In this document: positions 1,623 through 1,856 of the stretch, piece after piece
How the letters are laid out: every line of letters starts with the position of its first letter
How positions within the stretch are numbered: the first letter of the stretch is position 1
Source: Escherichia coli
Lineage (GTDB): Bacteria > Pseudomonadota > Gammaproteobacteria > Enterobacterales > Enterobacteriaceae
Assembly (NCBI RefSeq): GCF_030013595.1
Contig: NZ_CP122768.1
Strand: one strand, 5' to 3'
Length of the DNA: 64,000 bases
Translations under genes and position numbers: made by a program
Notes under the pieces: generated by a model
Seen by the model: the letters and a program-made list of their open reading frames with translations, nothing else
Databases searched by the model: none
What the model was told of the DNA's origin: nothing

Positions 1623-1856
1623 TCACTTCTGCAGTATCTCGCCAATACCTGCCAGGTTCTCATCCATCTTGTCACCGTTTTCGATAAGGATGGAGTTGAG
1701 CCGATTCAGTTGCATAGCAATTTCAAGTTTGATTAAAGTATCTACCGATACATCAGTTTCTTTTGCTAACTTAGTAAGAGCCTCAGCCCGATTGGCTAAA
1801 TTAAAATCATCGAACTCATAACGACTTCTGCACGGCTGGTTGCCTAACGTACCCAT
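1623..1856 (-). CDS. Hypothetical small acidic protein (77 aa), convergent with the 765..1445 gene
   Basis: ORF from six-frame track; AT-rich; hairpin just downstream of its stop codon. Confidence 0.4.
   Translation of the reverse strand: MGTLGNQPCRSRYEFDDFNLANRAEALTKLAKETDVSVDTLIKLEIAMQLNRLNSILIENGDKMDENLAGIGEILQK

Follow-up and report, generated by a model that had tools for sequence, protein, structure and literature searches.

As judged from sequence comparison, the 77-aa open reading frame (ORF) at positions 1623..1856 on the minus strand of the window (the whole 64,000-nucleotide stretch of Escherichia coli DNA analyzed here) is a real and strongly conserved gene, far beyond a chance ORF. 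The gene belongs to the family phrog_5550, and its locus fits an autonomous, single-gene moron cassette at the right-hand conserved edge of a cargo/defence hotspot, from which it is probably expressed while the prophage is silent.

A conserved 77-aa gene opposite to the phage operon

The gene is carried by a lambdoid E. coli prophage that has inserted at tRNA-Leu, next to pgsA. Its position in this prophage, with the replication genes on one side and DUF1367/YbcO/Q on the other, makes the nin region, as named by a first-pass annotation of this DNA, a fair label. In the ORF list, 1623..1856 (minus strand) is intact from its ATG start to its TGA stop and encodes an 8.6-kDa product of 77 aa, whose acidity, already noted in that annotation, is borne out by a pI of 4.65 (D+E 13 versus K+R 9). 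The protein contains no hydrophobic segment (top 19-residue Kyte–Doolittle mean 0.88), and the GC content of the gene is 0.43, compared with 0.50 in the window. The gene is alone on its strand. Its neighbours in the ORF list, all on the plus strand, encode a 226-aa membrane-type protein (765..1445), a 210-aa protein of phrog_5215 (2098..2730) and a 59-aa protein of phrog_340 (2878..3057), and further plus-strand neighbours are the DUF1367, YbcO/DUF1364, antiterminator Q and lysis genes. With this arrangement, the 77-aa gene indeed runs against the phage direction and converges on the 226-aa gene, from which it is separated by 177 nt, and the earlier description of the 226-aa product as a membrane protein agrees with its one strong hydrophobic segment at residues 164–182 (mean Kyte–Doolittle 2.05). 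Further to the left, a 64-aa ORF (511-705, plus strand) that is absent from the RefSeq annotation gave no family match in Pfam or PHROG, and a canonical terminator (723-745; AAAGCGCC-N7-GGCGCTTT followed by a T-run) is situated between this ORF and the 226-aa gene.

The entire 77-aa sequence matches phrog_5550 (E = 1.5e-53, 179.9 bits), with residues 1–77 aligned to profile positions 1–77 of 77. Against the common E. coli allele, five synonymous and two non-synonymous differences give a dN/dS of 0.106. In the comparison with the 52%-identical homologue from another prophage (locus L003), the synonymous sites are saturated (pS 0.83), and amino-acid changes number 0 in codons 1–7, with a pN of 0.12 in codons 43–77. 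The combination of saturated synonymous sites and few amino-acid changes indicates conservation at the level of the protein rather than the DNA. The gene is found in 417 of 5,426 complete E. coli genomes (~8%, largely of the ST131 lineage), and every copy is full-length and single-copy. The carriers include the ST131 reference strain EC958, and the RefSeq label is 'hypothetical protein'. Among the titles and abstracts listed by a literature search on the EC958 prophage and transcriptome, none resembled a transcript map of this prophage.

Expression signals and flanking hairpins

The inverted orientation requires some promoter of the gene's own, if the gene is expressed. A candidate sigma-70 promoter, TTGAAA-16 nt-TATCTT, is located at 1910..1937 on the minus strand, within the 138 nt upstream of the ATG; it matches the consensus at 9/12 positions and would give a leader of ~45 nt, and the consensus scan found just as many such sites in the region as chance would give. 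Simple scans upstream of the homologues revealed a 9/12 site for L029 but not for L003 or L031. The –35 hexamer is overlapped by a 16-bp near-palindrome at 1932..1947 (TTTCAAAT/ATTTGCAA; inverted repeats I5 and I9), which is unchanged in SK1144 and is a possible operator. A Shine–Dalgarno sequence, GAGGA (1863..1867, minus strand), can be read 6 nt before the ATG, and the homologues in L003, L029 and L031 are likewise preceded by a strong Shine–Dalgarno sequence. The RNA structure of the 5' region is not unusual (z –0.41), and an Rfam scan of window positions 1-5000 gave no matches.

At the 3' side, the hairpin previously noticed directly after the stop codon proved to be a double hairpin on the minus strand (1581..1618), whose onset is 4 nt past the stop. 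Its stems are formed by 1611-1618/1599-1606 (AGCCCCTC-TTTT-GAGGGGCT) and then by 1592-1598/1581-1587 (GCACCTT-TAAT-AAGGTGC), with a minimum free energy (MFE) of –32.4 kcal/mol (z = –6.1) that was reached by 0 of 200 shuffles. The double hairpin is followed by no canonical U-tract, and the terminator scanner flags its second stem only; it is a probable terminator or 3' stabiliser. At the 5' side, a terminator-like hairpin (inverted repeat I10) is found on the plus strand at 1995..2030, comprising AAAACCC-N9-GGGTTTT and then CTTTTTAT. The MFE fold of 1985-2040 (–16.4 kcal/mol, z –3.4) contains predicted stems that differ from AAAACCC/GGGTTTT, and the hairpin is, with modest support, the likely upstream boundary of the cassette, where rightward phage transcription that is not antiterminated would pause or stop.

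Several other elements were noted in this region. A 42-aa ORF at 1866..1994 (minus strand) was considered as a partner or toxin and rejected, as SK1144 contains an in-frame stop at codon 4 in otherwise conserved DNA. A 21-codon hydrophobic frame was seen by eye. In addition, a perfect 11-bp inverted repeat at 2049-2059/2079-2089 (CGAATAATAAA ... TTTATTATTCG, 19-nt spacer) reaches the Shine–Dalgarno sequence of the 210-aa gene and may act as an operator or form a translational hairpin; the TGCAAATA copy within it equals half of the 1932-1947 palindrome.

Allele comparison and the adjoining hotspot

Our comparison of the window with the ST131 allele reveals that the 77-aa ORF and the 138 nt upstream of it are 97% and 94% identical, respectively. 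The conserved block stops at ~1552, between the 77-aa and 226-aa genes, and the DNA further left is unrelated. On the right, DNA identity is 69% for the 210-aa gene and 81% for the 59-aa gene, compared with 95–98% for the 77-aa, DUF1367, YbcO and Q genes, and 2098-3057 is a mosaic block with possible immunity-type specificity. That the ORF and its 5' region are preserved between an unrelated left flank and a right-hand gene of only 69% identity argues for the autonomy of the cassette.

The DNA left of ~1552 (702-2347 in L001 and 4573-5676 in L002) is a variable cargo/defence hotspot. In the near-identical strain HCP5S3_I2, the hotspot contains a DUF262 protein matching PADLOC NsnA (E 4.6e-41), a 196-aa partner, an IS3 element and an LprI-family gene. 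Its ST131 counterpart contains a CapP-like ImmA/IrrE peptidase (PADLOC CapP E 2.4e-25; Pfam Peptidase_M78), with no adjacent HTH gene, and a 201-aa protein that is C-terminally membrane-anchored. The ST131 peptidase and 201-aa genes share the strand of the 77-aa gene, with ~400 nt and hairpins intervening. Among 2,127 ORFs from 63 loci searched by phmmer, ImmA/IrrE homologues were found in ST131-type loci only.

The 59-aa gene to the right shows a separate feature. In HCP5S3_I2, a perfect consensus LexA box, CTGTATATATATACAG, lies upstream of this gene, and its SK1144 counterpart is CTGTATAAATATACAG; the sites are located at 2845-2858 in the window, 27894-27909 in L004 and ~7300 in L002. In the window copy, a deletion of 2 bp (TA) produces CTGT-N6-ACAG, a spacing wrong for LexA; the phage of the window may be deregulated, unless the missing bases are a sequencing error. 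The 130-aa prophage repressor contains an HTH_3 domain only, without an S24 peptidase, and is adjoined by YdaS- and YdaT-like genes. The LexA box together with a repressor of this type makes the 59-aa protein a good candidate for an SOS-controlled antirepressor.

The phrog_5550 family

A first, word-indexed search yielded 15 relatives only. When 1.84 billion cluster representatives were searched exhaustively with an HMMER profile, 191 relatives were identified at E <= 1e-3, most of them 85–100 aa long. All 126 of the 126 aligned relatives match phrog_5550 and essentially no other PHROG. The start MGTL is present in 116 of 163 retrieved proteins, and in the 126-sequence alignment the columns M1, G2, L4, Q7, R10, R52, G61, D62, D65, E66, G70 and G72 are 89–100% conserved, against an overall identity of ~30–40% to the window protein. 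From these data we derived a signature composed of MGTLxxQxxR at the N-terminus and GDxxDE(Q/N)xxGxG at the C-terminus, the columns of which are 87–100% conserved in the 126 relatives with the exception of Q67 (79%). The window protein, with the N-terminus MGTLGNQ..R10, fits the signature through M1, G2, T3, L4, Q7 and R10 and through G61, D62, D65, E66, N67, G70 and G72, the residue at position 67 being N. The family is acidic: the pI is below 6 in 93% of members, and the segment equivalent to residues 55–77 has a mean net charge of –4.2. Compared with phrog_5550 at large, the enterobacterial branch of the window protein is shorter (77–81 aa), has DEN for DEQ and Q49/N51 for E/E, and lacks the C-terminal tail.

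The hosts, represented by genomes or metagenome-assembled genomes, include Bacteroidota, Cyanobacteria, Planctomycetota, Alphaproteobacteria/Proteobacteria, Firmicutes and Erwinia, and members also occur on IMG/VR viral contigs. In 50,697 phage genomes searched by tblastn with the window protein and two distant members as queries, one induced E. coli prophage was the only match, and the short subfamily was not found in 100,044 GTDB representative genomes. In the literature searched, vB_EcoM-705R4 is mentioned only in a paper on CRISPR diversity.

As a PHROG entry, phrog_5550 has no function, Pfam domain or structure. All source names are 'hypothetical protein', and the matches of a second word-indexed profile search were all unnamed or hypothetical proteins. 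For the 77-aa protein itself, Pfam, NCBIfam and PADLOC gave no meaningful match, the Pfam scan of the 126 relatives gave only scattered coiled-coil-type matches in the C-terminal tails, and a profile search against all PDB sequences found designed helical repeats and bundles only. Neither the accession numbers nor the PHROG id turned up any papers in literature searches. P0117, a metagenomic protein of 711 aa with a long coiled coil, contains five LNDLNSRIIANGEKIDE repeats resembling QLNRLNSILIENGDKMDE of the 77-aa protein, a likeness that is probably compositional.

Predicted structure of the 77-aa protein

The AlphaFold2 model of the 77-aa protein adopts a two-helix arrangement with a pLDDT of 90.4, residues 1–10 reaching only 68. 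The predicted elements are a helix at 17–34, a turn and a long helix at 38–76, the latter carrying G61 and D62, D65, E66 and N67, and G70 and G72 of the C-terminal motif. The tandem-linked dimer model contains four helices without strand pairing and resembles generic helical bundles only. By topology, helix 1 would span only the first half of helix 2; given this short helix, either the N-terminal segment or a second subunit would have to cover the heptad-spaced hydrophobic stripe of L57, M64, L68, I71 and L75 in the second half. We infer from this topology that the N-terminus packs on the C-terminal helix. An N-terminal peptide placed beside the GDxxDE..G.G stretch would explain the joint conservation of both.

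Genomic contexts in enterobacteria and beyond

In all five or six enterobacterial contexts, the homologues lie on the strand opposite the flanking phage operon, and no neighbour gene is common to these contexts. The nin contexts comprise the E. coli nin region with its two alleles (window and ST131) and a second nin region (L031-33), which has DUF1367, NinG and Q. The early-left or integrase-proximal contexts comprise L003, L029/L055 and L030. In L003 (z –5.2), L031 (z –2.7) and SK1144 (z –2.8), the stop is followed by hairpins that are unrelated in sequence, and the hairpin after the stop is not significant in L029, L030 or L055.

Morons, such as lambda bor and lom and HK97 gp15, are extra genes with their own promoter and terminator that are expressed from the prophage, and an opposite-strand moron in a nin region is a well-known kind of element. 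Like lambdoid morons, the 77-aa gene is single, is placed between conserved phage genes at positions that differ among phages, has a lower GC content than its surroundings, carries a hairpin at its 3' side and runs counter to the operon. It departs from typical morons in its many ordinary, co-directional early-gene relatives in other phyla. The first-pass reading of the gene as lysogeny-expressed cargo therefore stands as far as an autonomous gene is concerned, inverted in each enterobacterial context compared and without a common neighbour. Its antitoxin-like variant and, for the regulatory variant, the form of an SOS antirepressor found no support, for the reasons given below.

The distant members, examined on 21 viral contigs and in 13 genomes, are usually co-directional with their neighbours and lie in early or DNA-metabolism regions. 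No neighbour family is common to most of the 21 viral loci. An ERF annealing protein directly adjoins the family gene in L013, L011 and L060/61, a RecT-like protein is encoded 8 nt upstream in L008, and in L017-20 the stop of a Mu Gam-like gene overlaps the start. Furthermore, a primase or primase-helicase is located beside or near the gene in L036, L040, L056/57, L016, L010 and L015, and relaxases are found on the plasmid-like contigs L044 and L062. Phage early regions are rich in recombination and replication genes anyway, and this uncorrected association with annealing proteins, primases and relaxases is at most a lead.

Proposed mechanism and alternatives

The reading we favour, tentatively and with a rough probability of 0.35, is that the 77-aa protein acts as a stoichiometric protein-binding modulator of a conserved DNA-processing target, expressed from its own promoter, switched on in the lysogen and damped on induction. 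The product would be a cytoplasmic, acidic two-helix protein in which MGTLxxQxxR packs along the acidic, glycine-punctuated second half of the long helix, thereby creating one composite surface. This surface would bind another protein stoichiometrically, without DNA binding or catalysis. Because distant relatives are encoded beside annealing, Mu Gam-like, primase-helicase and relaxase genes, the target would most likely be a widely conserved factor that acts in replication, in recombination or in the processing of single-stranded DNA or DNA ends. Enterobacterial copies have been shortened and turned against the flanking operon, and would be transcribed from a promoter of their own; they would be active while the early operons are silent, and convergent read-through would damp them after induction.

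We weighed this modulator against readings in which the protein binds or mimics DNA. As a ribbon–helix–helix (RHH) or minimal helix–turn–helix (HTH) regulator of the Mnt or CopG kind, with a long C-terminal oligomerisation helix, the protein would repress its own promoter via the 1932-1947 palindrome or control the neighbouring replication and recombination genes. It does share with Mnt, Arc and CopG its size and its order of N-terminal extended segment, short helix, G-x-S turn and long helix; LAKETGVSVDTLIKLE resembles the helix, G-x-S, helix motif, and the weak matches include the RHH proteins MatP, KacA, CopG-type antitoxins and NikA. However, although hhalign sets the motif in register with Arc and CopG, the probabilities are 1.3% for Arc, 8.3% for CopG and 0.15% for Mnt; Pfam gave no RHH match for the 77-aa protein at E <= 1 or for the 126 relatives at E <= 0.01, and no HTH match among the 126 members. 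In contrast to Mnt, Arc and CopG, the protein has neither a family HMM match nor a predicted beta-ribbon dimer, and it is acidic, not basic. The weak hhalign scores, the four-helix dimer model without strand pairing and the acidic family together make an RHH or HTH DNA-binding role unlikely. A narrower form of the modulator reading is a nuclease or repair inhibitor of the Gam/Abc2/gp5.9 type, that is, an acidic, DNA-mimicking dimer protecting the ends or single-stranded DNA of phages or plasmids, which enterobacterial prophages would express on its own. Acidity and gene neighbourhood alone would point to inhibition of RecBCD/AddAB or another end-processing enzyme. Lambda Gam, P22 Abc2 and T7 gp5.9 are small acidic proteins of recombination modules, and the 77-aa protein resembles them in being small, acidic, helical and probably oligomeric; distant members directly adjoin ERF, RecT and Mu Gam-like genes, with translational coupling possible in places, and the wide host range implies a universal target. 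Yet comparisons of sequence and fold revealed no resemblance to Gam, Abc2, gp5.9, Ocr or ArdA, many family members are located away from recombination genes, and the E. coli copy lies in the nin region, outside the recombination module and far from the exonuclease and Gp157 genes of the prophage. In addition, a constitutive block of host repair would be costly in a lysogen, and we consider this inhibitor improbable.

Two further readings tie the gene to its surroundings in the prophage. The 77-aa protein could be an antitoxin, immunity factor or protease substrate paired with the product of an adjacent gene, either the 226-aa protein, with which the first-pass annotation had proposed joint action, or the ST131 CapP-like ImmA/IrrE protease and its membrane protein. 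The 226-aa gene adjoins the 77-aa gene in all seven of the genomes that have it, and in ST131 the downstream, same-strand Peptidase_M78 gene lacks its usual adjacent HTH partner. However, the 226-aa gene is present in only 7 of the 5,426 genomes, as compared with 417 for the 77-aa gene, leaving 410 of the 417 carriers without it, and the protease is absent from the window. The conserved block stops between the 77-aa hairpins and either left neighbour, ~400 nt and a terminator-like hairpin separate the 77-aa gene from the protease gene, and the other family loci have no ImmA/IrrE homologues. With no adjacent gene conserved across the contexts compared, the antitoxin-like role finds no support either, and the distribution largely refutes pairing with an adjacent gene, which we regard as very unlikely. 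As an SOS-controlled antirepressor, the protein would induce the prophage, whose 130-aa repressor lacks a self-cleavage domain. No LexA box (CTGT-N8-ACAG, <= 1 mismatch) is found in 1857-2097 upstream of the 77-aa gene, whereas in related strains a consensus box precedes the 59-aa gene; moreover, antirepressors usually co-vary with immunity, but the 77-aa protein is 97% identical between alleles in which the 59-aa and 210-aa genes have diverged. This form of a regulatory role is accordingly extremely improbable.

Beyond the modulator reading itself, we consider a wider proposal, which at present is doubtful, namely that phrog_5550 is an unrecognised, phylum-spanning family of mobile-element proteins docking, through the invariant N-terminal peptide and the acidic helix, on one universal host DNA-transaction protein, for example RecA, SSB, a RecBCD/AddAB-type nuclease, or the replicative helicase or primase. 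The outcome would be altered host recombination, repair or superinfection, and enterobacterial prophages, among them the one fixed in the pandemic ST131 lineage of E. coli, would have rewired the family as a lysogen-expressed cassette.

Implications

The PHROG membership, the hypothetical annotation and the kind of element were already known. What is new is how large and broad the family is, that its N-terminus is fixed and accompanied by the acidic motif, that members lie near genes for annealing proteins, primases and relaxases, and that the gene is systematically inverted in enterobacteria. At present, the gene has the status of an ordinary hypothetical moron with testable predictions. Comprising ~190 diverged clusters whose N-terminus is unusually constant, and with no record found in Pfam, the PDB or the literature, phrog_5550 merits a domain entry. 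The consistent reversal in enterobacteria provides a clean natural case of an early phage gene becoming a stand-alone cassette. Should a conserved host DNA-processing factor prove to be the binding partner of the protein, phrog_5550 would represent a new class of small modulators that is very widespread in phages and plasmids, and a gene present in ~8% of complete E. coli genomes, mostly those of ST131, would gain a function.
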